Below, one piece after another: positions 7,215-50,667 of a stretch of DNA of 64,000 nt (position 1 is the first letter of the stretch; the number at the start of each line of letters is the position of its first letter). Below the pieces are notes generated by a model, which was given only the letters and a program-made list of their open reading frames with translations, ran no database searches and was not told the DNA's origin. The translations under genes were made by a program, and so were the position numbers. This stretch comes from Candidatus Rokuibacteriota bacterium. GTDB lineage: Bacteria; Methylomirabilota; Methylomirabilia; Rokubacteriales; CSP1-6. Where the stretch lies: the NCBI GenBank assembly GCA_003220475.1, contig QHSO01000031.1:509-64508 (forward strand). The letters run 5' to 3'.

Positions 7215-7215
7215 C

Positions 7216-34198: not shown

Positions 34199-34205
34199 GA
34201 GGGCG

Positions 34206-34285
34206 CCCGACGCCCATACAACGGGGGGGCGTCGGGCCCCCCCGTTCCCCCCCGCCGCAGCAAAGGCCGGGGGGTTCGTTTTTCA
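34206..34285 (+). terminator. two consecutive hairpins after mpa, the second followed by a T-tract
   Basis: CCCGACGCCC (34206-15) pairs with GGGCGTCGGG (34227-36). Then CCCCCCCGCC...GGCCGGGGGG (about 34247-34274) is followed by TTCGTTTTT. Confidence 0.6.
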
Positions 34286-34333
34286 CGGTATCGTTTTCAG
34301 CGAGCGTGGTACGGACTTCGTAGAGGGGACCGC

Positions 34334-35836
34334 ATGGCCATCCCAAAAGTCATGGGCATCGAAACCGAGTACGGGATCACGGTGAAGAACCAGCCCGACT
34401 TCAATCCGATCCTGTCCTCCCTCCTGCTGATCAACTCCTATGAGACCTACCGCAGCTCGCGGGTGCGGTGGGACTACGAGGCAGAAAGCCCGCTGCGGGA
34501 TGCCCGTGGCTTCGAGTACATGGAGGAGAAGGAAGGAACGTCGAAGGAGGAGTCGCGGCTCATCAACCTGATCCTGTCCAACGGAGCGCGCTTCTACGTC
34601 GACCACGCGCACCCCGAGTACTCGAGCCCGGAGACGACCAACCCGCGCGACACGGTCATCTGGGACCGCGCGGGCGAGCGCATCCTGAACCTCTCGCGGC
34701 AGCGCGCGGAGGCGGTGTCGCCGCCCGAGCAGCGCATCCTCATCTACAAGAACAACACCGACAGCAAAGGCAACTCGTACGGCACCCACGAGAACTATCT
34801 GATGGACCGCAAGGTGCCGTTCGCGCGCATCGTGCAGCACATGATGCCGTTCTTCGTGACGCGTCAGGTGTACACGGGCGCCGGCAAGGTCGGCTACGAG
34901 AACAACGCCGAGCCGTGCGAGTACCAGATCTCGCAGCGCGCCGACTTCCTCGAGACGGAGGTCGGGCTCGAGACGATGCACTCGCGGCCGATCGTCAACA
35001 CGCGCGACGAGCCCCACGCCGATCCCGAGAAGTACCGCCGTCTGCACGTGATCGTTGGCGACGCCAACATGGCCGAGGTCTCGACCTACCTGAAGGTCGG
35101 CACCATGGCCATCGTGCTGAGCATGGTGGAGGACGACTTCATCGAGAAGGACCTCTCCATCGATGGTCCAGTGGCCGCCTTCCGCAAGGTCTCCCGCGAC
35201 CTCGCCTGCCGCGACACCATCCGGCTCAAGGACGGTCGGACGATTTCGGCCATCGATCACCAGCGCGAGTTCCTCGCCCTCGCCCAGCGCTATTTCAAGG
35301 AGCGCCAGCAGCCCGAGCCGTGGGTCGGCGAGGTGATGGGCAAGTGGGAGGCGACGCTCGACCGCCTGGCCGAGGATCCCGCCCAGCTCGGCCGCGAGCT
35401 CGACTGGGTCATCAAGCGGCAGCTCATCGAGAACTACGTGGCCAAGCACGATCTCGAGTGGAACGACCACCGGGTGTCGATGATCGATCTGCAGTACCAC
35501 GACATCCGGCCCGGCAAGGGCCTCTACTACAAGCTGGAGGAGTCCGAGGCGGTGGACCGCATCGTCACCGATGACGAGATCTCGAAGGCGATCTACGATC
35601 CGCCCAAAGACACGCGCGCCTACTTCCGCGGGATGTGCCTGCAGCGCTACAGCGACGAGATCGTGTCGGCCTCCTGGGACTCGGTCATCTTCGACCTCAA
35701 GGAAGGTCCCCTCAAGAAGATCTTCATGCTCGAGCCGCTGCGAGGCACCGAGGCGCACGTGCGGCAGCTCCTGACGGAATCGCCCACGGCCGCCGACCTG
35801 CTCCGGAACATCTCGCGGCCCAGCTTCGGCATGTGA
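34334..35836 (+). CDS. dop: Pup deamidase/depupylase (Dop-type)
   Basis: [10 protein letters not shown], then a ~40-aa insertion ([30 protein letters not shown]) that is absent from the second paralogue. 500 aa. [26 protein letters not shown]. Confidence 0.88.
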
Positions 35837-35858
35837 CGCGTCGTACACAAGGATCGCC

Positions 35859-36605
35859 ATGAACGACCAGCGCTGGCAGCACCTGTTCCGCGACTACGCC
35901 GATTCGAGCTTCAGCGAATTGCTGCGTCGCGACTCGCCGCACCTCTTTCCCGGGCCCGAGACGCATCCGCCCTCGGGGCCCGCGCCGGTCGAGGCAGTGC
36001 CGCACGGCACGACCGTGCTCGCGCTGCGCTATCGCGACGGCGTGATCATGGCGGGCGACCGCCAGGCCACCGCGGGTTACCAGGTGGCGAGCCGTCGCAT
36101 CGAGAAGATCTTCAAGGCCGACGATCTCTCCGGCGTGGGTATCGCCGGCGCGGCCGGCCCGGCCATGGAAATGGCCAAGCTGTTCCAGACCGAGCTCGAG
36201 CACTACGAGAAGGTCGAGGGCGACAACCTCTCGCTCGACGGCAAGGCCAACAAGCTCGGCCAGATGATCCGCATGAACCTGCAGGCCGCCATGATGGGCC
36301 TGGCGGTGGTGCCGATCTTCGCCGGCTTCGACGAGAAGGCGGGCGTCGGACGACTGTTCAAGTACGACATCACGGGCGGTCGCTACGAGGAGACGAACTA
36401 CGACTCCCAGGGGTCGGGCAGCAAGGACGCGCGCGACTCGCTGAAGAAACTGTGGAAGCGCCACATGAGCCGCGACGACGCGCTGCGCGTCTCGCTGGAG
36501 GCGCTGACAAGCGCGTGTGCGAGACAATCCTCGCCGACCGCGCGAAGACCGGAAACGGGGGCTAGCGCATGCCGCTGCCGTATTACGTCAGCCCCGAGCA
36601 GATGA
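35859..36605 (+). CDS. prcB: 20S proteasome beta subunit PrcB, 3' end disrupted
   Basis: Propeptide [16 protein letters not shown]...PHG|TTVLALRY gives the Thr1 active site; GSGS is present. After ...LRVSLEAL the frame loses GC3 bias and runs 37 nt into prcA. The alternative frame ends at TAG 36563-36565, 3 nt before the prcA ATG. Confidence 0.85.
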
Positions 36606-37261
36606 TGAAGGACAAGGCCGAGTATGCTCGCAAGGGCATCTCGCGCGGCCGGTCCATCGTCACCCTCGAGATCCGCGACGGCATCCTGCTGGTGGCCGAG
36701 AATCCGTCGACGCTGCTGCACAAGGTCTCGGAGATCTACGACCGCATCGCCTTCGCGGGTGTCGGCAAGTACAACGAGTTCGAAAATCTGCGGATCGCGG
36801 GCATCCGGCACGCCGACATCAAAGGCTATTCCTATAGCCGGGGTGACGTCACGGCCAAAGCGCTCGCCAACGCGTACTCGCAGGCGCTCGGCAACATCTT
36901 TACCCAGGACATCAAGCCGTTCGAGGTCGAGGTGCTGGTGGCCGAGGTGGCCGAGGGCAACGGCAGCCGCAACGAGATCTACCACATCCTCTATGACGGC
37001 ACGATCGAGGACGAGCGCAACTACGCGGCGATGGGCGGCCAGGCCGACGAGATCCGGCGGTTTCTGAAGGACCACTTCCGCGAGGGGCTGCCGCTGGACG
37101 AAGCGCTGCAGCTCGGTGTCCGCGCGCTGACGGTGACGCAAAACAAGACACTCAGCGAGCGCGATCTGGAGGTCGCGGTGCTCGACCGCGCGAAGGAGCG
37201 GCGCAAGTTCCGGCGCATCCCACCCGAGGCGCTGAGCCAACTCTTGGGCACACAGAGGTAG
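36569..37261 (+). CDS. prcA: 20S proteasome alpha subunit PrcA
   Basis: [31 protein letters not shown]...[19 protein letters not shown] parallels M. tuberculosis PrcA throughout. Confidence 0.93.
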
Positions 37262-37283
37262 GACGTGCTAGGCTGAGACCGAG

Positions 37284-38639
37284 ATGAAGCGCCGCATCTT
37301 CGGCCTGGAGAACGAATACGGCCTGACCTGCACGCTCAACGGCCAGCGGCGCCTCTCGCCCGACAACGTCGCGCGGTATCTTTTCGAGAAAGTCATCCCC
37401 GGCGCCCGCAACGCCAACGTGTTCCTCGAAAACGGCGCGCGGCTCTACCTCGACACCGGATTTCATCCCGAGTACGCGACGCCCGAGTGCGACGACGTGG
37501 TCGAGCTCGTCATCCACGACAAGGCCGGCGAGCGCATCGTCGAGGATCTCCTGCACCAGGCCGAGAAGCGGCTGCGCGAGGACGGTATCTCGGGCAACAT
37601 CCTCCTCTTCAAGAACAACACGGATTCGGCGGGTAACTCCTACGGATGTCATGAGAATTACCTGGTCAGCAGAGACGTATCGTTCCAGAGGCTCGCAGAA
37701 GCGCTGATTCCGTTCTTCGTCACGCGACAAATATTCGCCGGCGCGGGCAAGGTGTTGCAGACGCCGAGAGGATTCCACTATTGCTTGAGCCAGAGGGCTC
37801 AGCATATTTGTCAGGAGATCTCCGGCGCCACAACCTCCTCCCGCTCGATCATCAACACGCGCGACGAGCCGCACGCCGATGCCGAGCGCTATCGCCGGCT
37901 CCACGTCATCGTCGGCGACTCGAATATGTCGGAAGTTGCGACATACCTGAAGATTGGAACGACGGCGCTGGTCCTTGACATGATCGAAGATGGCTTCTTC
38001 GACCGCGATTACTCCTTGCAGTCGCCGGTGCAGGCCATCCGCGATATTTCTCACGACCCGACGCTGAAGGAGACGATCAAGCTCAAGGACGGCCGCTCGA
38101 TCTCCGCGCTGCAGATGCAGCTCGAGTACCTCGAGTACACCACGCGCTACGTCAATTCGATCAGCGCCGACGCCGCGTCCAAGGACGTGCTCGCGCGCTG
38201 GACCGAGGTGATGGAAAAGCTCGAGGCCGACCCGATGCAGCTCGATCGCGAGCTGGACTGGGTCATCAAGCGCCAGTGGATCGAGAGCTACATGACGCGC
38301 AATCGGCTCTCGTGGCGCGACCCGAAGATCTCGCTGATGGACCTGCAGTACCACGACATCCGACCCGACCGCGGCCTCTACTACAAGCTCGTCGGCAAGG
38401 ACATGGTCGACCGCATCACCGACGACGAGACCATCGAGCGCGCCAAGCACGAGCCGCCGCAGACCACGCGCGCGCGACTGCGCGGTGAGTTCATCCGGCA
38501 GGCCAACCTCAAGGGCAAGGACTACCGCGTCGACTGGGTCTACCTGAAGCTCAACGACCCCGAGCGCGAGACGATCCTCTGCAAGGACCCGTTCCAGTCC
38601 CACGACGAACGGGTCGAGCGCCTCATCCGCTCCTTCTGA
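37284..38639 (+). CDS. pafA: Pup-protein ligase (PafA-type)
   Basis: [10 protein letters not shown] without the Dop insertion. 451 aa. [26 protein letters not shown]. Confidence 0.88.
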
Positions 38640-40040
38640 CCGCCCTGGATCCCTACCAGGGATTCCGCGCCGTCCGTCTCGTCCTGCTGCTGGTCCTCGC
38701 CGGCGTCTTTTTCTGGCTCGCGGCCAGCCGCACGCCGTCGCGTCGCGTCTCCGTGGTGGCGGCGATCCTGGCCGTCGCGGCCGCGCTCGCCTACCCGAAC
38801 CTCGGCTTGTTCCACGTGCGCGATCGCAGCCCGATCCACTGGCACGAGAGCTTTCACTATTTCATGGGGCCGAAGTATCTGCCCGAGCTCGGCTATACGC
38901 GGCTCTACGAGGCGACGTGGGTGGCGGGCCGCGAGCTCGGCGCGTTCGCGCAGATCCGCCAGGTCCGCGATCTCGCCACGTACGCACTTCGCGACGTCGC
39001 GACGCTCGACGCGGCGGCGGTGCGGGCGCGCTTCGCGCCCGCGCGCTGGCAGGCGTTCAAGCGCGACCTGCGCGTGTTCGGCCCGCGCATCAATCATTGG
39101 GACGCCCTGCTGGTCGACCACGGCTACAACGATCCGCCGCCGCGCGCGCTGGCCCTGCACGTCCTCGTGCGCTGGGTGCCCGCCTCCGCGGCGGCGCTCG
39201 GCGTGCTGACCTCGCTCGACTACGCGCTCATGGCGATCGCCTTCTGGGCGGTGCGCCGCGCCTTCGGGGGTCTCGCGGCCAGCCTCGCCTTCGCGTTCCT
39301 CGCGCTCTCCTTCTTCGCGCGCTTCGACTTCATCGGCGGCTCGCCGTTGCGGTGGGACTGGACCGCCGCGCTGCTCATCGGCGCCGCCGGCCTCGCGCGC
39401 GGCGCGGGCGTCCTGCCTCGCCACCGCGGCCGTGCTGGTGATCGCGGTGACGCTCGTCCTGGTGGCGATGCCCGCCACCCGCACGCTCTCAGAGGATTTC
39501 GTGGCCAAGATCGAGCGCCACAATCGCGGCGTGTACTCGAACCACGTCGGCCTCGGCTCGCTGCTCGTGTTCCATGCGACGCCGTGGGCCGAGCGGCCCG
39601 ACGGCACCGTCTTCGTGGACCACGACGCCGCGTTGGCCGCGCGTCCGGCGCCGTGGGTGCTGCCGGCCGCCGGCGCGCTCTACTTCCTCCTCGCGCTGCC
39701 GCTGATGCTTCGGGCGCGGCCGCTGGAGTCGATCATGTATGCGGTGCCGCTGGTCTTCGTCGCGCTGAGCCCGGCGGGCTACTACTACTCGTTCCTCGTG
39801 CTGCTCGTGCTCCTGGCCTGGCGCGACGGCGCCGCCGACCCCCTGCGTCTCGTCGCGATGGCCCTGCTCGCCGTCGTGGGCGCCGGCGGCTATGCCCTGG
39901 AGCTCGCTTCCGCGGATATGCTGCCGCTCTTCTACAACGTGTCGATCCAGCTGGGCCTCTTCTTCGTCGTGTGGCTCGGCCTCGAGTATGTGCGGCTCGC
40001 CGCCCGACCGACCGCCGAGCGGGCCGCTGTCGGGGATTGA
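38636..40040 (+). CDS. hypothetical polytopic membrane protein, frame interrupted near 39411-39420; probable CTG start
   Basis: The frame opens at CTG 38636, overlapping the pafA TGA (CTGA): (M)[29 protein letters not shown].... A plausible membrane protein runs to ...[13 protein letters not shown]. It then continues convincingly only in the frame of ORF 39432..40040 ([13 protein letters not shown]...). Confidence 0.55.
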
Positions 40041-40139
40041 CCCGGTTCGGCCGGCAATGCTACATCTGACTTCGACCCCTTTCGCCGCGTGGCTCCCACG
40101 CGCTGCGTGTCCCTGACAGGCACTTCGAAAAGGAGGCGC

Positions 40140-40556
40140 ATGTTCGGTAAGAAGAACGGCAAGACGGCGAGCTCCCGCGGCGGCGACCTCACCGCGTTCA
40201 TCGACGAGGCCTCCGAGATCGAGGGCAAGTACACGTTCAGCGGCACGGTGATGCTGAACGGCAAGTTCAAGGGCGAGATCATCTCCACCGATACGCTGAT
40301 CATCGGCGAGAAGGCGGTCGTCAACGCGTCGATCCGCGCGGGCATCGTGCTCATCAGCGGCGAGGTCGTCGGCAACGTGCTGGCCGGCGAGCGCGTGGAG
40401 CTGCGCGGAACGGCGCGGGTGTTCGGCGACGTAGAGGCGCCCGTGGTCGTTGTCGAGGAGGGCGTGACCTTCGAGGGCAAGTGCCGCATGACCCGCGAGA
40501 CCGACGGCGCCGCCGCTGCCGTCTCCCCCGACTCGCCCGTCCGTTCGAAGCGCTGA
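40140..40556 (+). CDS. bactofilin (polymer-forming cytoskeletal protein)
   Basis: AAAGGAGG Shine-Dalgarno. IEGKYTFSGTVMLNGKFKGEIISTDTLIIGEKAVVNASIRAGIVLISGEVVGNV...VELRGTARVFGDVEAP is a typical DUF583 beta-helix repeat. Confidence 0.88.
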   Translation: MFGKKNGKTASSRGGDLTAFIDEASEIEGKYTFSGTVMLNGKFKGEIISTDTLIIGEKAVVNASIRAGIVLISGEVVGNVLAGERVELRGTARVFGDVEAPVVVVEEGVTFEGKCRMTRETDGAAAAVSPDSPVRSKR

Positions 40557-40562
40557 GCGCGC

Positions 40563-40871
40563 TCAGGCCGCGCGTCGTGGCAGCTCGGCCAGCGGGCGCG
40601 TCAGCCGCGGGCGCTCGGTGTCGCTGAGGTCGAGCGCGTCCCACGGCACGATGTGACGCTGCGGCTCGGGCGCGAAGCCTCCGAGCAGGCTCACCACGAG
40701 GTCTCCCGCGGCCAGCCGCTCGACGAGTCCGCCGACACCCAGCACGTATTCGCGCACGATCCACTCACCGTCCTCACGCTCGGCGTGCACCTCTTCGATC
40801 CGCCCGACCACGCGGCCACGGCGATCGATCACGCGCCGCCCGAGGAGATGCTCGAGCCGGATTTCCGCCAT
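40563..40871 (-). CDS. PRC-barrel domain protein
   Basis: MAEIRLEHLLGRRVIDRRGRVVGRIEEVHAEREDGEWIVREYVLG. The ATG shares one base with the upstream TGA (TGATG). The rest of the 630-aa track ORF is spurious. Confidence 0.7.
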   Translation of the reverse strand: MAEIRLEHLLGRRVIDRRGRVVGRIEEVHAEREDGEWIVREYVLGVGGLVERLAAGDLVVSLLGGFAPEPQRHIVPWDALDLSDTERPRLTRPLAELPRRAA

Positions 40872-41215
40872 CACCGGCCTCCGGGGATGCGCGCGATCAG
40901 ACGCGCGAGCCATTTCTCGACGCGCCACGCCGGCGTCTCGGTCGCGTCGATGCCGACGCGGATCTCTCGCGCGACGCTCAACACCGCCGAGCGCGGGATG
41001 CGCGTCGCGGTCGCACGCGTCGCCAGGCGGCCGAGCGGTCGCGTCATCCAGCGGGGCAGCCGCGCCAGGCGCGTCGCCGCGCCCACTTCGAGCGCGACCA
41101 CCCGCGGCGGCGCATCCGGGCGGAGCTCGAGCACCACGCCGTCGACCTTGCCGAACGGTCGCCCTTCGGCGTCGAGCAGCTGCTTGTCGAGCACGTCGCG
41201 CCCGAGAGAGAGCAC
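40871..41215 (-). CDS. PRC-barrel-like domain protein
   Basis: (M)LSLGRDVLDKQLLDAEGRPFGKVDGVVLELRPDAPPRVVALEVG. GTG at 41215 lies 3 nt after the transporter stop. Confidence 0.6.
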   Translation of the reverse strand: MLSLGRDVLDKQLLDAEGRPFGKVDGVVLELRPDAPPRVVALEVGAATRLARLPRWMTRPLGRLATRATATRIPRSAVLSVAREIRVGIDATETPAWRVEKWLARLIARIPGGR

Positions 41216-41218
41216 GGC

Positions 41219-42430
41219 TCAGCCTCCCAGCAGATCGAGTGGCACGGACACGATCGCGAGCACACACGCGAGCACGACCACGCCCAGCACGAACGCGTTG
41301 CCGAGACGGCTGTTGCTCCGGTCGCCGACGTACTCGCGATCGTTCATGAGCACGAGAAAGGGCACGACCGCGAGTGGCAGGCAGGCGGCGTTGAGCGCCA
41401 TCGCCACGTTGGTCAGCCGCAGGGGATCGAGGCCGATCGCCGCCGGCGCCGCGGCCAGGACGAGCGCCACCGTGTAGGAGACGCTGAAGCGTGCGGCCTC
41501 GCGCGGCCGTACGTTCTCGCCCCAGTTCCACCCGAAGCCCTGCGCGATCATGTAGGCGAGCGCCAGGGCCACCTCGAGCGCGGCGCCGAAGCACGCGATG
41601 CCCAGCGCCGCCACGAACAGCGGAAATCCCCACGGTCCGAGCGCGTCGGTGAGCATCGGCGCCATCTGGTCGAACGACTCGAGCCGGGCGCCGCGCATGA
41701 ACACGAGCGCGGCCACGACCAGCACGGCCGCCGCCAACGTCGCGCCGAATCCCATGCCGAACGTCGACACGAAGCGGTTGGCCGGCACGTCGTCCGGCTC
41801 CCAGCCGTCCTCCACCGCCCCCGATGAGTAGAAGTAGAAGAGATATGGCGTCAGCGTCGCGCCGAGGATGCTCACGGCCAGGAACCAGTAGCGACTCGCG
41901 TCGTAGGGAGCGCCCGACGGAACGAAGCCGGCGGCCATCTCGCGCACCGTCGGATGTAGCCGAGCCGCCGCCACCAGGAACACCACGGTCACCAGGCCGA
42001 GCAGCGACACGCCGTTTTCGACGACGCCGAAGTTCCCGCGCCAGAGCAGGAGCCAGAGCGCCACCATGACCGGCACCGCCCACCATTGAAAGCTGACCCC
42101 CGTCGCGAGTTGCAGCGCTATGCACACCGCGCCGAGCTCGGCGGCGAGGGTCAGGACACTGACAGCGACGACGCCGACGAGCGGCAACACGAAGAAGCGC
42201 AGTCCGAAGCGCTCGCGCATCGCGCCGGCGATCGTGTGATGGCTCATCGCCGCCAGCCGGCCGGACATCTCGATCAGCGCGACCAGGCAGATCGTTCCGA
42301 CGAGCAGCACCCACAGCAGCGAATAGCCGTACTCGGCGCCGGCCTGGATCGAGGTGGTGATGGAACCGGCTTCGAGGAAACCGCCGAAGCTCGTGACGAT
42401 GCCGAGGGCGACGTGCAGGAGCTTCTTCAC
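41219..42430 (-). CDS. NRAMP-related transporter with non-canonical metal-site residues
   Basis: IQAGAEYGYSLLWVLL and ILGATLTPYLFYFYSS align to MntH TM1/TM6. DPGN is replaced by EAGS (42373..42362) and MPH by TPY (41851..41843). GTG start at 42430. Confidence 0.8.
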   Translation of the reverse strand: MKKLLHVALGIVTSFGGFLEAGSITTSIQAGAEYGYSLLWVLLVGTICLVALIEMSGRLAAMSHHTIAGAMRERFGLRFFVLPLVGVVAVSVLTLAAELGAVCIALQLATGVSFQWWAVPVMVALWLLLWRGNFGVVENGVSLLGLVTVVFLVAAARLHPTVREMAAGFVPSGAPYDASRYWFLAVSILGATLTPYLFYFYSSGAVEDGWEPDDVPANRFVSTFGMGFGATLAAAVLVVAALVFMRGARLESFDQMAPMLTDALGPWGFPLFVAALGIACFGAALEVALALAYMIAQGFGWNWGENVRPREAARFSVSYTVALVLAAAPAAIGLDPLRLTNVAMALNAACLPLAVVPFLVLMNDREYVGDRSNSRLGNAFVLGVVVLACVLAIVSVPLDLLGG

Positions 42431-42485
42431 GCCCCTTCGACGCTGCAACCGACATGCCTCAGGGGCGCGTGAATTGCAGATCAGC

Positions 42486-44327
42486 GTGCCGGGAGCGCAG
42501 GAGATCGTGGACTGGTGGAATGCGGGACGTCGTAGACACCGCCGGCGCGTCGCCGCCCTCGGGGTGGCATTGCTGGTCGCGCTTCTCACAATCATCGTCG
42601 CCGTCCACTCCGACCATCACGCGCTGGCTGCCGTGGGCGAGGACGGTCAATGGCTGCGCGCCGCCGGCGACTACGCGAGCACGCGCTACAGTCCGCTGGC
42701 GCAGATTACTGCAGCGAACGTCAGGCAGCTCCGTCCGGCCTGGTCGTTTTCCACCGGCGGCGCGCGCGGTCACGAGGCCGCGCCGCTCGTGGTGGGCGAC
42801 ACGATGTACGTCGTGACGCCCTATCCGAACGTCGTCTATGCGCTCGACCTGCGCGCCGGCGGCGGCACCGTGCGGTGGAAGTACGAGCCGAAGCCCGCCG
42901 CGGCGGCGCAGGGCGTGGCGTGCTGCGACGTCGTCAATCGCGGCGCCGCCTATGCCGACGGCCGGGTCGTCTTCAACACGCTCGACGCGCACACGATCGC
43001 GGTGGACGCGCGCACCGGCCGCGAGCTGTGGAACACGAAGCTCGGCGAGATCAACCGCGGCGAGACGATGACGATGGCGCCGCTGATCGTGCGCGATCGC
43101 GTCCTGGTCGGCAACAGCGGCGGCGAGCTCGGCGTGCGCGGCTGGCTGGCCGGGCTCGACCTGGCCACCGGCGCCGTCGCGTGGCGGGCGTACAGCACGG
43201 GTCCGGACCGCGACGTGCTGATCGGTCGCGCGTTCCGTCCGTTTTACGCGGCCGATCGCGTCCCGAATCTCGGCGTCACGACGTGGCCCGCCGAGGCGTG
43301 GCGCATCGGCGGCGGCACCATGTGGGGCTGGATCTCGTACGATCCCGAGCTCGATCTCGTCTATCACGGCACGGGTAACCCCGGTCCGTGGAATCCCGAC
43401 CAGCGGCCGGGCGACAACAAGTGGACGTCGGCGATCTTCGCGCGCCGCCCGGCGACCGGTGAAGCGGTGTGGGCGTATCAGCTCTCGCCGCACGATCTGC
43501 ACGACTACGACGGCATCAACGAGCAGATTCTGCTCGACCTCGACATCAAGGGCCGTCGCCGCAAGGTCCTCGTGCGCCCGGATCGCAACGGCTACGTCTA
43601 CGTGATGGACCGGGCGACGGGCGAGGTCCTGTCCGCGACGCCATTTGCGCACGTCAACACCAGCAAGGGCGTCGACCTCGCCACGGGCCAGCTGAGCTTG
43701 AACGACGAAAAAACGCCGGTGCTCGGCAAGGTCGTGCGCGACATCTGCCCGGCGGCGCCGGGCGCCAAGGACTGGCAGCCGTCGGCGTGGTCGCCGCGGA
43801 CCGGCCTGCTCTACGTGCCGCACCAGAACCTCTGCATGGACGTCGAATCGGTCGAGACCGGCTACATCGCCGGCACGCCGTTCGTCGGCATGAACGTGCG
43901 CATGTACAGTGGCCCCGGCGGGCACCGCGGCGAGGTCACGGCGTGGGATCCCGTCAACGCGCGCGCGGCGTGGAAGCTGAAGGAGCCCTTTCCCGTGTGG
44001 AGCGGCGCGCTCGCGACGGCGGGCGACGTCGTCTTCTACGGCACGATGGACCGCTGGTTCAAGGCGGTGGACGCGAAGACCGGGGAGCTGCTCTGGCGCT
44101 TCCAGACGGCCTCGGGAATCATCGGCCAGCCGATCACCTATCGCGGTCCCGACGGCAAGCAGTACGTCGCGGTCCTGGACGGCGTCGGCGGCTGGGCCGG
44201 CGCGATCGTGTCCGCCGACCTCGATCCGCGGGACACCGGCGCCGCGCTCGGCTTCGTGAACGCGATGCGGGATCTGCCCGCGCACACGGCCAAGGGCGGC
44301 ACGCTGTGGGTCTTCGCGCTGCCATGA
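42486..44327 (+). CDS. xoxF: PQQ-dependent methanol/ethanol-family dehydrogenase, XoxF-like (lanthanide signature)
   Basis: YSPLAQITAANVRQLRPAWSFSTG, GHEAAPLVVGDTMYVVTPYPN, the vicinal disulfide ACCD, GDNKWTSAIFARR and HDLHDYDG (the DYD motif). Start is uncertain (GTG 42486 or 42507). Confidence 0.88.
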   Translation: MPGAQEIVDWWNAGRRRHRRRVAALGVALLVALLTIIVAVHSDHHALAAVGEDGQWLRAAGDYASTRYSPLAQITAANVRQLRPAWSFSTGGARGHEAAPLVVGDTMYVVTPYPNVVYALDLRAGGGTVRWKYEPKPAAAAQGVACCDVVNRGAAYADGRVVFNTLDAHTIAVDARTGRELWNTKLGEINRGETMTMAPLIVRDRVLVGNSGGELGVRGWLAGLDLATGAVAWRAYSTGPDRDVLIGRAFRPFYAADRVPNLGVTTWPAEAWRIGGGTMWGWISYDPELDLVYHGTGNPGPWNPDQRPGDNKWTSAIFARRPATGEAVWAYQLSPHDLHDYDGINEQILLDLDIKGRRRKVLVRPDRNGYVYVMDRATGEVLSATPFAHVNTSKGVDLATGQLSLNDEKTPVLGKVVRDICPAAPGAKDWQPSAWSPRTGLLYVPHQNLCMDVESVETGYIAGTPFVGMNVRMYSGPGGHRGEVTAWDPVNARAAWKLKEPFPVWSGALATAGDVVFYGTMDRWFKAVDAKTGELLWRFQTASGIIGQPITYRGPDGKQYVAVLDGVGGWAGAIVSADLDPRDTGAALGFVNAMRDLPAHTAKGGTLWVFALP

Positions 44328-45118
44328 GGGCGACGGCAGGCGCGCTGCTCGCGCTGCTGCTGCTCGGCGCGGCGCCGGCGCCGGCGCCGCTGCGCGTCTG
44401 CGCCGATCCCAACAACCTGCCGTTTTCGAACGCGCGTGGCGAGGGGTTCGAGAACCGCATCGCCGAGCTGCTCGCGCGCGAGCTCGGCACGCGCGTGGAA
44501 TACACGTGGTGGGCGCAGCGGCGCGGGCTCGTGCGCCACACGCTGGCGGCCGGCGCGTGCGACCTGCTGGTGGGCGTGCCGGCGGGGTGGGACCCCGTGC
44601 TCGCGACGCGTCCGTACTATCGCTCGACGTACGTCTTCGCCTGGCGACGAGACCGCGCGCTCGACGTGCGCAGCCTCGACGATCCGCGGCTGCGGACACT
44701 CAGGCTCGGCGTGCAGCTCATCGGCGACAACGGTGTGAACACGCCGCCGGCGCACGCGCTGGCGCGCCGCGGAATCGTGCAGAACGTCCGCGGCTATCCC
44801 ATCTACGGTGACTACGCGCGGCCGAGTCCGGCGGCACAGATCCTCCACGCGGTGGCCGACGACGAGATCGACGTCGCGGTCGTCTGGGGGCCGCTGGCCG
44901 GCTACTTCGCCGACCGCCTCACGACGCCGCTCGCATTCGCCCCCGTCACGCCGGCGATCGACCCACCGGGATTGCGCTTCACGTTCGCGATGGCGGCGGG
45001 CGTGCGCAAGGGCGACACGCCGCTGCGCGATCGGCTGCAGGCCGCGCTCGACCGTCGCGCCGACGATGTGCGCGCGATCCTGGATGCCTACGCGGTCCCG
45101 CGTGTGGAGCAGCCGTGA
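44324..45118 (+). CDS. xoxJ: MxaJ/XoxJ-like periplasmic binding protein associated with quinoprotein dehydrogenases
   Basis: ATGA overlap with xoxF. Signal peptide, then LRVCADPNNLPFSN...RPYYRSTYVF...DVAVVWGPLAGYF. Confidence 0.8.
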   Translation: MRATAGALLALLLLGAAPAPAPLRVCADPNNLPFSNARGEGFENRIAELLARELGTRVEYTWWAQRRGLVRHTLAAGACDLLVGVPAGWDPVLATRPYYRSTYVFAWRRDRALDVRSLDDPRLRTLRLGVQLIGDNGVNTPPAHALARRGIVQNVRGYPIYGDYARPSPAAQILHAVADDEIDVAVVWGPLAGYFADRLTTPLAFAPVTPAIDPPGLRFTFAMAAGVRKGDTPLRDRLQAALDRRADDVRAILDAYAVPRVEQP

Positions 45119-45618
45119 GCCGGGTGGCCGCGCTGGCGTGCGTGATGCTCGCGCTCGTCGCGTGCGAGCGAGAGCACCGCCGCTTCAGCGAGGTCGCGCC
45201 GGCGTCGGGCCGGCCGACGCACGTCACGCCGCAGCCATCGCGCAACCCGGCGGAGGGTAACGCCTGGGCCATCGCGCAGGGCAAGCAGCTCTACGAGGCA
45301 TACAACTGCAACGGCTGTCACGCCAACGGCGGGGGCGGCATGGGGCCCGCGCTGATGGACGCCACGTGGCTCTATGGCAGTGAGCCGCAGGACGTCTACA
45401 CGAGCATCGTCGAGGGGCGCCCCAACGGCATGCCGGCGTTCGGCGGACGGATTCCCGACGTGCAGGTCTGGCAGCTCGTCGCGTACGTGCGCTCGATGAG
45501 CGGCCAGACGCGCTTCGACGTGCGGCCGGCGCGCAGCGATCACATGCGCGTGAAGGAATCCGAGCAGGCGCGTCGCCCGGAGCGGCCGGTCACCGCCGCG
45601 CCGTCGGGTCGGCCATGA
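45115..45618 (+). CDS. c-type cytochrome (mono-haem, lipoprotein-like signal)
   Basis: GTGA overlap. LALVAC, then the CNGCH haem site and the GMPAF Met-ligand region. Confidence 0.8.
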   Translation: MSRVAALACVMLALVACEREHRRFSEVAPASGRPTHVTPQPSRNPAEGNAWAIAQGKQLYEAYNCNGCHANGGGGMGPALMDATWLYGSEPQDVYTSIVEGRPNGMPAFGGRIPDVQVWQLVAYVRSMSGQTRFDVRPARSDHMRVKESEQARRPERPVTAAPSGRP

Positions 45619-46619
45619 GCCGCGCGGCCATCGTCGTCGCCGCCGTCGCGTGCGCGGCGTGCAGCGGACGCATGCCCGTGCTCGATCCCGGCGGGCCACA
45701 GGCCGCGCGCATCGCCACGTACTGGTGGATCGTGTTCTGGCTGTCGGCGCTCATCCTCGCCGCCGTGGTCGCGTTCCTGCTCCACACGCTCGCGCATCGG
45801 CGCGTGGCCGCGGCGCCGGCGAGCCTCGTCGAGGACACGCGCGTTGAGCGTCGGCTCGCGCTCGGCGTGGCCGCGGCGGTGGGGCTCACGGCGCTCACGC
45901 TGGTGGTCTTGCTCGTCACGAGCGTTGCCACCGGTCGCGCGCTGCGCAGCTTCGGCGGCACCGATCCGCTCACGCTCGAGGTGACGGGATATCAGTGGTG
46001 GTGGGACGTCGAGTACTGGGATCCCGTGCCGTCGCAGCGCGTGCGCACGGCCAACGAGATCCACATTCCGGTCGGCCGGCCGGTCCTCGTCAAGACGCGC
46101 TCGCTCGACGTCATCCACAGCTTCTGGGTGCCCGGCCTGCATGGCAAGAAGGACAACATCCCGGGCCACGGCTCGTCCCTCGTGCTGCAGGCCGACCGTG
46201 CGGGTACCTTCATCGGTCGCTGCGCGGAGTTCTGCGGCGTCCAGCACGCGCACATGCAGCTGCTGGTCATTGCCGACCAGCCGGAGGTCTTCGACGCATG
46301 GCTGCAGGCGCAGCGGCGATCGGCGGTCGTGCCGACGGACGCGTTCGCGCGACACGGCTTCGACCTGTTCATGACGGGCCCGTGCGCGCTCTGCCACACG
46401 GTACTCGGCACGCCGGCGGGCGGCCGGCGCGGTCCCGATCTGACGCACCTGGCGTCGCGCCGGACGCTCGCCGCCGGCACGCTACCAAACACCGTGGGCC
46501 ATCTCGCCGGGTGGATCATCGATCCGCAGGCTCAGAAGCCCGGCGCGCAGATGCCTGGCAATGCCTTCGGCGCCGACGATCTGAGCGCGCTGCTCGCGTT
46601 CCTCGGAGGGCTCTCGTGA
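45615..46619 (+). CDS. coxB: cytochrome c oxidase subunit II with C-terminal cytochrome c domain
   Basis: ATGA overlap. CuA motif CAEFCGVQHAHM, SLDVIHSFWVPGLHGKKD, and a C-terminal CALCH haem site. Confidence 0.9.
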   Translation: MSRAAIVVAAVACAACSGRMPVLDPGGPQAARIATYWWIVFWLSALILAAVVAFLLHTLAHRRVAAAPASLVEDTRVERRLALGVAAAVGLTALTLVVLLVTSVATGRALRSFGGTDPLTLEVTGYQWWWDVEYWDPVPSQRVRTANEIHIPVGRPVLVKTRSLDVIHSFWVPGLHGKKDNIPGHGSSLVLQADRAGTFIGRCAEFCGVQHAHMQLLVIADQPEVFDAWLQAQRRSAVVPTDAFARHGFDLFMTGPCALCHTVLGTPAGGRRGPDLTHLASRRTLAAGTLPNTVGHLAGWIIDPQAQKPGAQMPGNAFGADDLSALLAFLGGLS

Positions 46620-48547
46620 GCTCGACCGTCGGCCCGACGAGCACGCTCGCACCCGGCGAGGCCGCGCGCGAGACGCTGGACCGCGCCGCGCTCGAGCGCG
46701 TCTGGTCGACGCCGCCGGGCTTCCTGGGATGGCTGACGAGCGCGAGCCACAAGTCCGTGGCCCTGCGCTACATCGTGACGGCATTCGGCTTCTTCGCGCT
46801 CGGCGGCGTGCTCGCCGCGCTCATGCGACTGCAGCTCACGCGCCCGGAGAGCCGCCTCATCGGCCCCGACCTCTACAACCAGATCTTCACGATGCACGGC
46901 AGCACGATGATGTTCCTGTTCGCGGTGCCGGTGATGGAGGCGTTCGGCATCTACCTCGTGCCGCTCATGATCGGCACGCGCAACGTCGCCTTTCCGCGCA
47001 TGAACAACTTCGGGTACTGGATCTATCTCTTCGGCGGCCTCATGCTGTGGACGGCGTTCGCGCTCGACATCGGACCGGACACCGGCTGGTTCGCGTACGT
47101 CCCGCTGTCGGGCCCCGCCTACTCGCCGGGCAAGCGCGTCGACATCTGGGCGCAGCTGATCACGTTCACGGAGATCGCCGCGCTCGTGGCCGCCGTCGAG
47201 CTCATCGTCACCACGCTGAAGATGCGCTGTCCGGGCATGTCGCTCAACCGGATGCCGCTGTTCGTGTGGGCGATGCTCGTGACCGCGTTCATGGTCATCT
47301 TCGCCATGCCGGCCATCATGGTGGCCAGCACGATGCTGGCGATGGACCGGCTCGTCGACACGCACTTCTTCAATCCGGCCGAGGGCGGCGACGCGCTGCT
47401 GTGGCAGCACCTGTTCTGGTTCTTCGGCCATCCCGAGGTCTACATCATCTTCATTCCGGCCACGGGCTTCGTGTCCACGATCGTGTCGACCTTCGCGCGC
47501 CGGCGCATCGTCGGCTATCCGGCCATGGTGCTGGCGCTCATCGCGACCGGCTTCCTCGGCTTCAGCCTGTGGGTGCACCACATGTTCGCCGTCGGCCTGC
47601 CGCAGCTCGGCGAGGCGTTTTTCACGGCCGCGAGCATGATGATCGCGATCCCCAGCGGCATCCAGGTCTTCTGCTGGCTCGCCACGCTGCGCGGGGGCCG
47701 CATCGTGATGCGCGCCCCGCTGCTCTGGGCGCTGGGGTTCATCGCGCTCTTCGTGATCGGCGGACTCACCGGCGTCATGACGGCGGCCGTGCCGCTCGAC
47801 CTGCAGCTGCACGACACCTACTTCGTCGTGGCGCACTTCCACTACGTGCTGATCGGCGGCGCGCTGTTCCCGCTCCTCGGCGCCGTCCTGTTCTGGCTGC
47901 CGAAGATGTGCGGGCGGATGCCCGACGAGCGGCTCGGACGAGTGAGCTTCTGGATCACGTTCGTGGGCTTCAACCTCACGTTCTTTCCGATGCACCTGCT
48001 CGGCCTCGGCGGGATGCCGCGGCGGGTCTACACCTACGCGCGCGACGCCGGCCTGACGACGGGCAACGTCGTGGCGAGCGCGGGCGCGGTGGTGCTGACG
48101 GCCGGCATCCTGGTGTTCCTGGCCAATGTCGCGTGGACGTTGCGTCGCGGCGCGCCCGCCGGCGACGATCCCTGGGGCGCGGAGACGCTCGAGTGGGCCA
48201 CCGCCTCGCCGCCGCCGTCGTACAACTTCGCCTACCTGCCAACGGTGGACGGCCAGGCACCGCTCTGGTCGACGCAGGAGCGCCCCGTCGTCACGGGACT
48301 GCGCACCGACGTCCGCGAAGTCCTCATCACCGACGGCGTCGACGCCACGCCCGATCACCGGCATCGGCTCGACGGCGCGAGCGTCTGGCCGTTCCTGACG
48401 GCCGTCGCGGCCACGATCGGCGTGGTCACCGCGCTCTTCACACCCTGGGGCGTGACCATCGGCTCACTGCTCGCGCTGGTGACGCTCACCGGGTGGTTCT
48501 GGCCGCGCGGCGCGCCGGCGCACGAAACGGTGGAGCAACGTCCGTGA
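46616..48547 (+). CDS. coxA: cytochrome c oxidase subunit I
   Basis: GTGA overlap. NQIFTMHGSTMMFLF, WFFGHPEVYIIFIP, WVHHMFAVG, HFHYVLIGG. Confidence 0.93.
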   Translation: MSSTVGPTSTLAPGEAARETLDRAALERVWSTPPGFLGWLTSASHKSVALRYIVTAFGFFALGGVLAALMRLQLTRPESRLIGPDLYNQIFTMHGSTMMFLFAVPVMEAFGIYLVPLMIGTRNVAFPRMNNFGYWIYLFGGLMLWTAFALDIGPDTGWFAYVPLSGPAYSPGKRVDIWAQLITFTEIAALVAAVELIVTTLKMRCPGMSLNRMPLFVWAMLVTAFMVIFAMPAIMVASTMLAMDRLVDTHFFNPAEGGDALLWQHLFWFFGHPEVYIIFIPATGFVSTIVSTFARRRIVGYPAMVLALIATGFLGFSLWVHHMFAVGLPQLGEAFFTAASMMIAIPSGIQVFCWLATLRGGRIVMRAPLLWALGFIALFVIGGLTGVMTAAVPLDLQLHDTYFVVAHFHYVLIGGALFPLLGAVLFWLPKMCGRMPDERLGRVSFWITFVGFNLTFFPMHLLGLGGMPRRVYTYARDAGLTTGNVVASAGAVVLTAGILVFLANVAWTLRRGAPAGDDPWGAETLEWATASPPPSYNFAYLPTVDGQAPLWSTQERPVVTGLRTDVREVLITDGVDATPDHRHRLDGASVWPFLTAVAATIGVVTALFTPWGVTIGSLLALVTLTGWFWPRGAPAHETVEQRP

Positions 48548-49149
48548 GCCAACGCGCGCTCGACGTCTCCGCGCTGCCCACGATCGCTTACGGGCCCCGC
48601 GCGAGCATCTGGTGGGGCGTGCTCGGCCTCGTCGCCATCGAGGGCAGCGCGCTCGCCATCGTCGGCGTCTCGTACCTCTATCTGCGGCAGAATTTCGTCG
48701 CGTGGCCGCCGCCGGGAACGCCCCTGCCCGCGCTCGGAGCGGCCACCGGGGACCTCGTCGTGCTGCTCGCCAGCATCGTGCCCATGGCGATCGTCGATCG
48801 GCTCGCACGCGCCGAGCGGCGCCGTCCGGTGGCGATCGGCCTCGGCGTCATGGTGCTGCTGGGGCTCGCGTCGCTGGCGCTGCGCGCGCTGCAGTTCGCC
48901 GGCGCGCTCGGATGTCGCTGGGACAGCCACGCCTACGGCTCGGTCGTGTGGACGCTGCTCGGCATGCACGCCGCCCACGTGTTGACCTCCACGCTCGAGA
49001 ATGCGCTGCTCATGGCCGTGCTCGTCGTCGGTCCCGTCGAGCGCAAGGACTTCGTCGATGCGCACGTGAACGCGTTCTACTGGTATTTCATCGCCGCGGT
49101 GTGGGTGCCGACGTACGCGCTCGTCTATCTCGCCCCCCGCTTCCTATGA
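48544..49149 (+). CDS. coxC: cytochrome c oxidase subunit III-like
   Basis: GTGA overlap. Five-TM protein with WTLLGMHAAHVLTS and YWYFIAAVWVPTYALVY. Confidence 0.8.
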   Translation: MSQRALDVSALPTIAYGPRASIWWGVLGLVAIEGSALAIVGVSYLYLRQNFVAWPPPGTPLPALGAATGDLVVLLASIVPMAIVDRLARAERRRPVAIGLGVMVLLGLASLALRALQFAGALGCRWDSHAYGSVVWTLLGMHAAHVLTSTLENALLMAVLVVGPVERKDFVDAHVNAFYWYFIAAVWVPTYALVYLAPRFL

Positions 49150-49511
49150 GCCCTCCCTTCGGTAGGACAAGCGTGCGACGACTCTGGCTCGCGATCGCGC
49201 TCGGTCCGCTCGCCTGGCTCACCTACGTCGTGATCGCCTATGCCCTCGTGCCGCTGGCGTGCCGCCACCCGGGCGCGGCCTCGCGCATCGGACTCTATGG
49301 CGTCGGTGCCGCCACGCTCGTGATGGCGCTCGGCGCCGTCGTTCTCGCGTGGCCCGCCTGGCGCACCACCGATCGCGCCACCGCCGACGATGCGCCGCCG
49401 GCGGGGCTGATGCGCTTCATGGCGATGACGGGCCTCGGCTCCGGCGCGCTGTTCGTCGTGGTGGCCATCGCCGGCATCCTGCCGCTCTTCTTGCTGGCGC
49501 CATGCGAGTGA
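49146..49511 (+). CDS. small hypothetical membrane protein in the oxidase operon
   Basis: ATGA overlap. 121 aa with three or four hydrophobic helices. No family recognised. Confidence 0.55.
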   Translation: MSPPFGRTSVRRLWLAIALGPLAWLTYVVIAYALVPLACRHPGAASRIGLYGVGAATLVMALGAVVLAWPAWRTTDRATADDAPPAGLMRFMAMTGLGSGALFVVVAIAGILPLFLLAPCE

Positions 49512-50659
49512 GCACGCTGCGCGCGTGCGCCATCGCCGTCCTCGTCGTTGGCGCGCCCGCGACGGCGGCCGCACACGGTGACGAGGCCAGCGTGGCGTCG
49601 CGCGCGCCGCTCATCGCCCTGCTCGCGCTCGGCGCGTGGCTGTACGCGCGCGGCGTCCGGCGGCTCGGCCCGCGCTGGCCACGCCGTCGGGTCGCGGCCG
49701 CGGCCGCCGGTGCCTGCACCATCGCCGCCGCGCTGCTGTCGCCGCTCGACACGCTGGCGGCCTCCAGCATCACCGCGCACATGGCCCAGCACACGCTGTT
49801 GATCCTGGTCGCCGCGCCGTTGCTCGCGCTCGGCCGCCCCATCGCCGTGATGGCCGCCGCGCTGCCGCGGGCGCCGCGGGCCGGCCGCCTGCTCGCGACG
49901 CCGCGACCGGGTGTGGCGTGCGGCGCGCATGCGGCCGCGCTGTGGCTGTGGCATCTGCCGCCGCTGTACGACATCGCGCTCGCGCGGCCCTGGGTTCACG
50001 CGCTCGCCCACGCCACGCTGCTCGGCACGGCCACGCTTCTCTGGTGGTCGGTCGCGCGCGGCCGTGCGCGCGTCATCGGCGCGCTGTGGCTGTTCATCAC
50101 CGCGTTCCACGCCGGCGGCCTCGGCGCGCTGCTGGCGTTGTCGTCGCGACCGTGGTTTGCCGGCGCGTCGCTCGAAGATCAACAACTCGGTGGACTGCTG
50201 ATGTGGGTGCCGGCGGGCGCGCTGCTGACGGCGATCGCGCTGGCCCTGCTCGCCGGCTGGCTCCGCGCGGGCGCGGCGTCCGTGTCCGCCAGCCGGTTCG
50301 GCGTCGTGATCGTCGCGACACTCGCCGCCGCGGCGCTGAGCGCCTGCGATCAGGCCGGACCCACGGCGACGACGATGGCCGCCGGCGACCCGTCGCGTGG
50401 CCGCGAGGCGCTAAGAACGTACGGCTGCGTGACGTGCCACACGATTCCCGGCGTGCCCAACGCCGCCGGCGCCGTCGGTCCGCCGCTGACGCAGCTGGCG
50501 CGACGCGCGTACATCGCGGGCGCGCCGAACGATCCCGACCACCTGGTGCGCTTCATCGCTCATCCGCGTCAGGAGCGGCCCGGCACGCCGATGCCCGAGC
50601 TCGGCGTGAGCGACCACGACGCGCGCGACATGGCCGCCTACCTCTACACGCTGCGCTGA
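49502..50659 (+). CDS. ctaG: CtaG (caa3-type) oxidase assembly factor fused to a C-terminal cytochrome c domain
   Basis: TAHMAQHTLLILVAAPLL, WLWHLPPLYD and the LMWVPAGALL membrane core. After a lipobox-like LSAC comes a soluble domain with CVTCH and a PGTPMP Met ligand. Confidence 0.75.
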   Translation: MRVSTLRACAIAVLVVGAPATAAAHGDEASVASRAPLIALLALGAWLYARGVRRLGPRWPRRRVAAAAAGACTIAAALLSPLDTLAASSITAHMAQHTLLILVAAPLLALGRPIAVMAAALPRAPRAGRLLATPRPGVACGAHAAALWLWHLPPLYDIALARPWVHALAHATLLGTATLLWWSVARGRARVIGALWLFITAFHAGGLGALLALSSRPWFAGASLEDQQLGGLLMWVPAGALLTAIALALLAGWLRAGAASVSASRFGVVIVATLAAAALSACDQAGPTATTMAAGDPSRGREALRTYGCVTCHTIPGVPNAAGAVGPPLTQLARRAYIAGAPNDPDHLVRFIAHPRQERPGTPMPELGVSDHDARDMAAYLYTLR

Positions 50660-50667
50660 CCGGCCCC

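Follow-up and report, generated by a model that had tools for sequence, protein, structure and literature searches.

Three signatures of the substrate site have been published for the NRAMP-related transporters, namely DxxN-A/CxxM for NRAMPs, DxxN-AxxT for NRATs and DxxG-TxxA/T for NRMTs (PMC8806188, PMC10115441), and the Asp in the first transmembrane helix (TM1) has been described as universally conserved in SLC11 (Ramanadane et al., PMC8806188). An NRAMP was reported by Voutsinos et al. (BMC Biol 2024, PMC10875860) for the XoxF3 systems of Acidobacteria and Gemmatimonadetes, where its gene is flanked by genes for hypothetical proteins of ~110-130 amino acids (aa) and lies beside xoxF3, xoxJ, xoxG, coxI-III and ctaG, and lanthanide transport was proposed for it; XoxF3 is the most abundant XoxF type in soils (PMC10875860). 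Here we analyse a member of the same gene family, in the same arrangement, that is encoded at 41219..42430 on the reverse strand of a 64,000-nucleotide (nt) stretch of Candidatus Rokuibacteriota DNA (contig QHSO01000031.1; hereafter the window) and that is referred to below as the carrier (403 aa, PF01566). The window gene set falls under the definition of an XoxF3 system with accessory NRAMP (PMC10875860), and the XoxF3-NRAMP link as such was already published in 2024. The earlier work did not extend to the binding site, to what the small proteins are or to where the family occurs outside XoxF genomes, and its loci differ from the present one, which is of the Rokubacteria/Methylomirabilota type, has the cassette divergent from xoxF and lacks a lipoprotein gene. 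What appears to be new are the site signature, the definition of the clade, the PRC-barrel partners, a possible relocation of a Met and the sigma-54-like elements. The reading that we favour, with reserve, is that the carrier belongs to a general uptake module for hard cations (Mn2+-class, possibly broader) that was recruited to a respiratory island.

At the level of sequence the carrier is a full-length match to the Pfam Nramp family (PF01566; 207.2 bits at a cutoff of 29.8 in the Pfam scan), its residues 24-374 spanning model positions 1-356/357. It scores below the cutoffs of the NCBIfam MntH model (NF001923; 105.7 bits, cutoff 430) and of TIGR01197 (59.4 bits, cutoff 272.5), and barely reaches that of the broad model NF037982 (54.3 versus 50). 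A sequence search of the PDB returned EleNRMT (7QIA) as the best match, with 112.7 bits and ~26% identity, DraNramp/MntH with ~78 bits and SiNRAT (8ONT) with 40 bits. The label 'MntH-type', given in a first-pass annotation made from the sequence alone, therefore has to be dropped, as the carrier is nearer to NRMT and the 'Nramp outgroup' (112 versus 78 bits) and attains only 106 of the 430 bits set for MntH. In the AlphaFold2 model of the carrier (pLDDT 81.7, pTM 0.85) the helices are broken at residues 17-20 and 193-194, which matches the unwound TM1 and TM6 of NRAMPs, and in Foldseek the model is closest to EleNRMT (TM-score 0.89-0.90) and next to DraNramp (range over both 0.82-0.90), so that the predicted structure shows a LeuT/NRAMP fold nearest to EleNRMT. 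The same search matched the model to an integrative model of Bacillus subtilis YcsG (9a52_A, TM-score 0.84, 16% identity), another divergent NRAMP-family protein, which in 9a52 is modelled with a partner protein. The start codon of the carrier gene is GTG 42430, with a Shine-Dalgarno-like AAGGGG just 5' of it; the homologues, of which the closest are from Candidatus Rokuibacteriota/Methylomirabilota metagenome-assembled genomes, are 403-404 aa long, share the N-terminus MKK.L..ALG and start at the same position.

The residues of the metal site were equated by independent HMMER and MAFFT alignments to DraNramp and EleNRMT, and their conservation was assessed in 120 homologues of at least 59% identity. 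In TM1, D56 of DraNramp is replaced by E20 (42373..42371) and N59 by S23 (42364..42362); in TM6 the Ala is kept (A227, A191 in the carrier), M230 is replaced by T194 (41851..41849) and H232 by Y196 (41845..41843), and in TM6b H237 is replaced by Y201. The TM3 Glu is kept (E134, E98 in the carrier), the proton-relay residues D131 (TM3) and R353 (TM9) have become L95 and Y319, Q378 in TM10 has become M344, and TM8 carries an extra Glu, E286, in the motif GAALE (codon 41573..41575). Both alignments bear out, to the codon, the changes of DPGN to EAGS, of MPH to TPY and of the second TM6 His to Tyr that the first-pass annotation had read from the sequence; M344 and E286 had been overlooked, as had the PRC-barrel pair and the cox/ctaG genes downstream of xoxF (see below). 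The alignments show a substrate site rebuilt as E20/S23, the A191 carbonyl together with T194, E98, E286 and M344, in which the 'universal' TM1 Asp of SLC11 is a Glu. E20 is found in 116 of 118 homologues, S23 in all 118, Thr or Ser at position 194 in all 120 and each of the two TM6 Tyr (Y196, Y201) in 119/120, the columns L-E-[AVI]-G-S and G-A-[TS]-[LI]-[TS]-P-Y..Y being nearly invariant; because they are conserved across the homologues, the changes are not noise. The comparison supports a remodelling of the putative metal site towards oxygen donors and more negative charge (E20, S23, T194, E98, E286).

The TM10 position deserves separate mention. In DraNramp, Q378 takes part in water-mediated Mn2+ binding and in closure of the outer gate (PMC10185341), and in EleNRMT mutation of Q379 strongly compromises transport (PMC8806188). 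In the carrier this position is M344, and Met is found here in 119/120 homologues. The first-pass annotation had argued from the loss of the metal-site Met, and this stands for TM6, but the site region as a whole is not devoid of a thioether, given the exchange of Gln for Met in TM10. Among representatives of the wider radiation described below (P0121-P0264), all 5 with Met at TM6 have Val or Ile at TM10, and 11 of the 16 with Thr, Ser, Ala or Val at TM6 have Met at TM10 (Fisher p = 0.012, in a small sample of non-independent sequences). This suggests that a thioether may have been retained near the site and shifted from TM6 to TM10. The TM8 Glu is kept in the carrier clade and in its sister clades, and is not found in the NRMT, MntH and GPGT groups, which makes it a candidate defining residue of this NRAMP-related radiation.

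Since the carrier reads ExxS-AxxT, it fails all three published signatures. With NRMTs (EleNRMT/CabNRMT; 7QIA, PMC8806188, PMC4072509) it shares, besides the best sequence and fold match, an insertion after TM8 (GW..G....K/R.A..F), the loss of the TM6b His and of the TM3/TM9 relay, the retained TM3 Glu and the absence of the TM6 Met. It differs from them in the signature DxxG-TxxA/T (position 191 is Ala, not Thr), in the TM1 Glu, in the Met that stands in place of the essential Q379, in the extra TM8 Glu and in being always encoded with two PRC-barrel genes; moreover, no M-box, typical though not obligatory for NRMTs, was detected for the carrier. The plant NRATs (OsNrat1, SiNRAT; 8ONT, PMC10115441) likewise have AxxT in TM6, i.e. 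a hydroxyl in place of the soft Met, more negative charge near the site and a proposed proton-uncoupled transport. They retain DPSN, however, where the carrier has EAGS, and gain a TM3 Asp (D140) where it has T94 and carries its extra acid on TM8, and they are close to plant NRAMPs whereas the carrier is bacterial and similar to them at 40 bits only. From the canonical MntH/NRAMP proteins (DraNramp, ScaDMT, EcoDMT, DMT1) the carrier has kept the LeuT fold, the unwound TM1 and TM6, the equivalent of the TM3 Glu E134 and a strong similarity in TM1b (IQAGAEYGYSLLWVLL versus IEGGARYGYSLLWVIL), but it replaces DPGN, the A/CxxM-MPH motif with the second TM6b His, the TM10 Gln and the relay charges D131/R353.

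An exhaustive search for relatives, represented at 50% identity, yielded 3307 sequences. Among full-length representatives the signature ExGS/[ST]PY/TM10-Met holds down to ~43% identity, beyond which follow a diverse radiation (VDxG[ADEGQ], VExGE and others) and then the NRMT-type DAGG/TTIAPW. In a rough neighbour-joining tree of 41 sequences (36 of the representatives, 2 PDB references, the window protein and 2 close homologues) the carrier clade is monophyletic within a radiation that is sister to NRMT (DAGG/TTIAPW) and lies outside the NRMT clade itself. A widely distributed 'Nramp outgroup' has been described by Cellier and by Shin et al. (PMC9606685, PMC4072509), and the radiation probably corresponds to a part of it. 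The carrier clade thereby represents a fourth way in which an NRAMP metal site has been rebuilt, after NRAMP, NRAT and NRMT, and the replacement of the TM1 Asp, together with the suggested move of the Met from TM6 to TM10, bears on the evolution of ion selectivity in SLC11-type transporters. Riboswitch control, the clue by which the NRMTs were identified, was rejected for the carrier: at the Rfam gathering score no M-box or other riboswitch was found in the window and in 7 diverse loci, the sole hit being one tRNA.

The carrier is encoded together with two small proteins. The first (s114; 114 aa, 40871..41215, reverse strand) starts 3 nt past the NRAMP stop codon, and the ATG of the second (PRC102; 102 aa, 40563..40871, reverse strand) overlaps the s114 stop codon (ATGA). 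In all 80 loci that we compared, the carrier gene is followed by homologues of both; these loci are the best tblastn matches among at least 599 stretches (567 of them confirmed). PRC102 scores 21.2 bits with the Pfam PRC family (PF05239), exactly at the cutoff, and s114 has no Pfam match; the two profiles align with 96% probability in hhalign (E 4.7e-9), which makes the proteins paralogues. The AlphaFold2 model of s114 (pLDDT 82.5) has a PRC-barrel fold with a C-terminal helix, and its Foldseek matches are the PRC-barrels 1PM3 (MTH1859) and 8ONW/8QZO (the archaeal CdpB1/B2 heterodimer) and the H subunits of photosynthetic reaction centres, of which the H subunit caps the cytoplasmic face. A search of the s114-family sequence profile against the PDB gave no meaningful match, its fold having been identified from structure prediction, and the PRC102 profile matched PRC-barrel entries weakly; the top matches of the latter, designed PPR proteins, were discarded as repeat artefacts, and the weak PRC-barrel matches alone are meaningful. 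Both proteins are presumed to be cytosolic because no signal peptide or transmembrane helix was seen on inspection of their sequences. The literature on PRC-barrel proteins in combination with Nramp yielded nothing relevant. A third partner, a lipoprotein of ~120 aa with a lipobox and the motif SWxATxxMVxxAW, is encoded directly 5' of the carrier in 63/80 loci (loci L003-L080; e.g. L008:9583-9996). The window and 9 of the 10 xoxF-linked loci are without it, and the idea that its gene lies elsewhere in the window was rejected, as tblastn gave no match.

On this basis we propose that the carrier would be the membrane component of a module for cation uptake, encoded by three or four genes, that consists of the NRAMP-like carrier, the two PRC-barrel proteins and, in most loci, the lipoprotein. 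It would act as an alternating-access importer of a hard or borderline metal cation, driven by the membrane potential rather than coupled to protons, with the PRC-barrel paralogues probably paired as a heterodimer that would bind to its cytoplasmic face or act there as a regulator. Both TM6b His and the TM3/TM9 charge relay of the proton-coupled NRAMPs are gone (D131 to Leu, H232 to Tyr, H237 to Tyr, R353 to Tyr), and uncoupled transport would follow by analogy because EleNRMT has lost the same relay residues, in its case along with uncoupled transport (PMC8806188). As for the cargo, the carrier may take larger or more highly charged hard cations besides Mn2+-class divalents. To our knowledge, every characterised PF01566 member carries Mn2+-class divalents.

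The genome context of the module was the starting point for a more specific proposal. The first-pass annotation had noted a divergent, XoxF-like neighbour with the lanthanide DYD signature at a distance of about 55-75 nt, and this neighbour is indeed an XoxF-type methanol/ethanol dehydrogenase dependent on pyrroloquinoline quinone (PQQ) (42507..44327, forward strand; 641 bits with TIGR03075). Its best PDB match, at 656 bits, is 4MAE, the lanthanide enzyme of Methylacidiphilum fumariolicum, with whose WDYDG the lanthanide-Asp motif HDYDG aligns. The likeliest start, GTG 42507 (preceded by AGGAG), leaves a gap of 76 nt to the carrier gene, and the alternative, GTG 42486, one of 55 nt. Downstream, all on the forward strand, follow an XoxJ/MoxJ-like periplasmic binding protein (44324..45118; TIGR03871, 301 bits), a c-type cytochrome in the position of XoxG (45115..45618; PF13442 and PF00034), coxII (45615-46619), coxI (46616-48547), coxIII (48544-49149; COX3 Pfam match), a small membrane gene, c16 (49146-49511), and a Caa3_CtaG-type assembly factor (~49523-50659), the last five delimited by tblastn with the Pfam-labelled genes of a relative (L085). 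The Caa3_CtaG-type gene is apparently fused to a C-terminal segment like the cytochrome c domain of CoxII (tblastn 50399..50656).

This arrangement invites the view, held by Voutsinos et al. for XoxF3 systems, that the carrier is a dedicated lanthanide importer, which would bring Ln3+ from the periplasm to the cytoplasm for sensing, storage and xoxF expression, in a role like that of LutAEF or PedA1A2BC in Proteobacteria. Of the functions that the context suggests, import of lanthanides for sensing or storage is the foremost candidate, and lanthanide uptake by the carrier is plausible, although we consider a dedicated importer of this kind unlikely on balance. Its repeated embedding in XoxF3 islands of four phyla (PMC10875860) argues for it, as do the gained oxygen donors and carboxylates (E20, E98, E286, S23, T194) together with the NRAT-type AxxT (PMC10115441) and the likely co-regulation with xoxF discussed below. 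A scan of the ~30 larger open reading frames (ORFs) of the window turned up no gene for a TonB receptor and none of the lanmodulin-like or lut type; this agrees with the first-pass annotation and also counts in favour of a lanthanide importer. In the two proteobacterial systems that have been studied, lanthanide-dependent growth needs cytoplasmic lanthanide import by ABC transporters, another point in its favour. The conserved Met at the TM10 site position and the absence of the NRAT-specific TM3 Asp (T94 instead) argue against it. XoxF, furthermore, is periplasmic, and an inner-membrane importer therefore cannot metallate it directly, which weakens the first-pass hypothesis of an importer that serves the dehydrogenase.

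The distribution of the cassette weighs on the same question. The 80 loci comprise 42 from cyanobacteria, 13 from Gemmatimonadetes, 11 from Mesorhizobium, 7 from Acidobacteria, 5 from Rokubacteria, 1 from Chloroflexia and 1 that is unclassified. A xoxF gene occurs in the fetched flanks of 10 (3 Rokubacteria, 4 Acidobacteria, 3 Gemmatimonadetes), and cox, ctaG or yncE in those of 18, which include all xoxF-linked loci. In Acidobacteria and Gemmatimonadetes the genes lie on one strand in the order xoxF-xoxJ-cyt c-coxII-coxI-coxIII-small-ctaG-NRAMP-PRC-PRC-yncE, so that the cassette is located inside the cluster, whereas in Rokubacteria it is divergent from xoxF; taking Mesorhizobium into account, the linkage to the island comes in at least three gene orders across the four groups. 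On plasmid pB1-1-8 of Mesorhizobium sp. B1-1-8 (L090, NZ_CP083957.1 436683-479172) the cassette (FJ974_RS29930-29945) is 5 kb away from pqqBCDE; at 13-15 kb from it lie yncE, ctaG, cox genes, xoxJ and a dehydrogenase with the DYD motif, all of these within ~25 kb. A sister Mesorhizobium plasmid has the cassette without these genes. In cyanobacteria, neither xoxF nor cox occurs in the flanks of any of the 42 loci. The linkage to the XoxF3-Cox island is thus real, recurrent and facultative. It recurs in four phyla and in different gene orders, but with xoxF in the flanks of only 10/80 loci, and of 0/42 in cyanobacteria, the clade is not dedicated to XoxF. That most loci of the clade, including the 42 cyanobacterial ones with the identical site signature, are without xoxF tells against a dedicated lanthanide importer; since the cassette family as a whole is not tied to XoxF, a cation of general use is a more likely substrate for it than a cargo of lanthanides alone.

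Two loci are informative in this respect. In the first, from Rokubacteria (L081; GCA_044869815.1 JBIOXS010000143.1), with a 72%-identical carrier, the cassette and a lipoprotein gene are present without the ~8 kb block from xoxF to ctaG, and the flanks are those found around window positions 40000..52600, i.e. an amidohydrolase on one side and bactofilin-PafA-proteasome on the other; a 113-aa gene is retained that resembles the small gene between coxIII and ctaG. Between this contig and the window the island as a whole is polymorphic, by insertion or deletion, and the cassette being kept where the block is absent is a further point against a lanthanide-only role. In the second (L082), with a 65%-identical carrier, the cassette is followed co-directionally by COX2-COX1-COX3-small-CtaG (3471-7909), with no xoxF on the contig portion covered, which reaches 1.5 kb 5' of the cassette, where the contig ends. 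A linkage to cox only again argues against the lanthanide importer, and yet a fragment that resembles the C-terminal part of a TonB receptor lies 5' of this cassette (L082:2-670, forward strand), which can be counted in its favour.

The tightly spaced cassette-COX2-COX1-COX3-small-CtaG arrangement of the second locus leads to another explanation, namely that the carrier is a partner of the oxidase and imports a metal for the caa3-type oxidase or the cytochromes (Cu, Fe2+ for haem, or Mn2+/Mg2+). There is an analogy in CcoA, a Cu importer of the MFS type that is required for the assembly of cbb3 oxidase. The cox/ctaG-linked loci include every xoxF-linked locus plus more (18 versus 10 of 80), ctaG lies immediately 5' of the carrier gene in several Gemmatimonadales, the TM10 Met is conserved, and cyanobacteria have a high demand for Cu, Fe and Mn. 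We nevertheless regard this explanation as quite improbable: the known Cu(I) sites look different from one made of Glu, Ser and Thr with a single Met, 62/80 loci have no nearby cox gene, and as the contig of L082 ends 1.5 kb 5' of the cassette, xoxF may lie beyond it.

A third explanation holds that the linkage is incidental, the carrier being a general homeostasis or stress cation transporter (e.g. for Mg2+/Mn2+) alongside which the xoxF-cox block was inserted or lost. The Rokubacteria slot (amidohydrolase ... bactofilin-PafA-proteasome) is the same with or without the 8-gene block, the Mesorhizobium cassette lies among general-stress-type genes (CsbD, DUF3618, holin-like, ferritin-like) and on one plasmid has no nearby xoxF, and the nearest characterised relative is a Mg2+/Mn2+ uniporter. 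On the other hand, the recurrence in four phyla and in varied gene orders is far above the ~1% expected by chance (estimated from typical genome sizes), the cassette is embedded in a co-directional cluster between ctaG and yncE, remnants of the island adjoin the cassette in L081/L003 and L088, and no M-box or other riboswitch accompanies it; all this makes the incidental linkage, if anything, a shade less probable still than the oxidase partner. The remnant in L088 may be represented by a 115-aa fragment of a PQQ dehydrogenase (L088:12972-13319; 63% identical to the window XoxF over 43 aa), 2 kb 3' of a cassette that is otherwise without the XoxF island.

The gap between the carrier gene and xoxF contains two sigma-54-type -24/-12-like elements, both consensus matches: GGCATGTCGGTTGCA at 42444..42458 on the reverse strand, which faces the NRAMP gene, and GGCGCGTGAATTGCA at 42464..42478 on the forward strand, which faces xoxF and lies ~29 nt 5' of GTG 42507. 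The pattern GGC-N7-TTGCW has 3 matches on both strands of the 64 kb, which is chance level overall, but 2 of the 3 stand back to back in the 76-nt gap; the third (GGCATGCGCGTTGCA, 3562..3576, forward strand) lies in or near small reverse-strand ORFs. Both elements are conserved in the Rokubacteria relatives L001, L002, L084 and L085, and they suggest joint control of the two genes in this lineage. Upstream of the cassette outside Rokubacteria they are absent, and sigma-54-like regulation would therefore be lineage-specific. A scan for sigma-70 promoters gave zero matches between 40 and 43 kb, and a search by eye for metalloregulator or EcfG-type boxes 5' of the Mesorhizobium cassettes was set aside, as the 11 regions showed no convincing shared palindrome or GGAAC-N16-CGTT. 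The divergent elements, if they act as promoters, would probably co-regulate the module with the XoxF-XoxJ-cytochrome c-caa3 oxidase-CtaG island, and through such co-regulation the module would serve the metal economy of this respiratory island.

Set against the context, then, a general hard-cation uptake module recruited to the island is the reading that we tentatively prefer, and lanthanide uptake is no more likely than a broader role for hard cations or for Mn2+-class ions. Of the hard-cation importer serving the dehydrogenase, as the first-pass annotation had it, the oxygen-rich site, the linkage to xoxF and the sigma-54-like elements have held up; the module is not dedicated to XoxF, and the TM10 Met does not fit. 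Several points weigh against the reading that we prefer. That E286 and M344 would face the metal site is suggested by the alignment to DraNramp (PMC10185341), and M344 may be a mere hydrophobic gate residue, as sister clades have Val, Ile or Leu there. The oxygen-rich acidic site and the NRAT-like AxxT suit a trivalent or hard cation better than Fe2+ or Cu. The sigma-54 elements are matches to a consensus, and the transcription start predicted from them would leave the NRAMP gene almost no leader. The 80 loci are phylogenetically clustered and include many Nostoc species. Finally, the direction of import and the substrate are what we infer for the carrier.

If the lanthanide hypothesis were true, the carrier would perform a step analogous to the inner-membrane Ln3+ step of LutH with LutAEF in Methylorubrum extorquens and of PedA1A2BC in Pseudomonas putida. 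The Lut and Ped systems, which have no homology to the carrier, are driven by ATP: they are ABC importers that work with periplasmic binding proteins and a TonB receptor. The carrier would instead be of the secondary type and have PRC-barrel proteins in the cytosol as its partners. In its strongest form the hypothesis would make the ExGS/AxxT/TM8-Glu clade a new class of secondary transporters for trivalent rare-earth or other hard cations, complexed with a cytosolic PRC-barrel heterodimer, and the missing inner-membrane lanthanide route of XoxF3 organisms; this we hold to be rather doubtful, even more so than a dedicated lanthanide importer as such. We know of no route for inner-membrane lanthanide uptake outside Proteobacteria, and the literature on xoxF with Nramp and on lanthanides with NRAMP held no functional study of any member of the clade that we could find. 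Were the hypothesis correct, it would provide a lanthanide uptake route for Rokubacteria, Acidobacteria, Gemmatimonadetes and some rhizobia, and the fact that many terrestrial cyanobacteria have the cassette would point to a lanthanide biology in them that has gone unrecognised. The locus in any case offers a defined candidate, whose site signature is conserved, whose two PRC-barrel partners are obligatory and whose regulatory region is likely to be shared, and because the whole island occurs on a plasmid of a cultured Mesorhizobium strain, the lanthanide question is genetically testable.

Some further observations concern the surroundings of the cassette. The pB1-1-8 region also carries ferritin-like, 'low affinity iron permease' and general-stress-type genes. 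The neighbours of the cyanobacterial cassettes include, by reading of the sequence, a GH31 hydrolase, a sensor kinase, an SDR and a phytoene/squalene-synthase-like gene, and were rejected as a clue to the substrate, as they have no metal theme. Elsewhere the window contains housekeeping genes, a cluster for the Pup-proteasome and genes for ABC transport of the sugar type, with ABC genes at 56-63 kb that were assigned as far as solute-binding protein or permease. The Pup-proteasome cluster (ARC ATPase, Dop/PafA-type ligases, PrcB and PrcA; 32348..38639, forward strand) is complete and is followed by a membrane protein of ~430 aa without a Pfam family and then by bactofilin (40089..40556, forward strand), a block that is syntenic in all Rokubacteria relatives.

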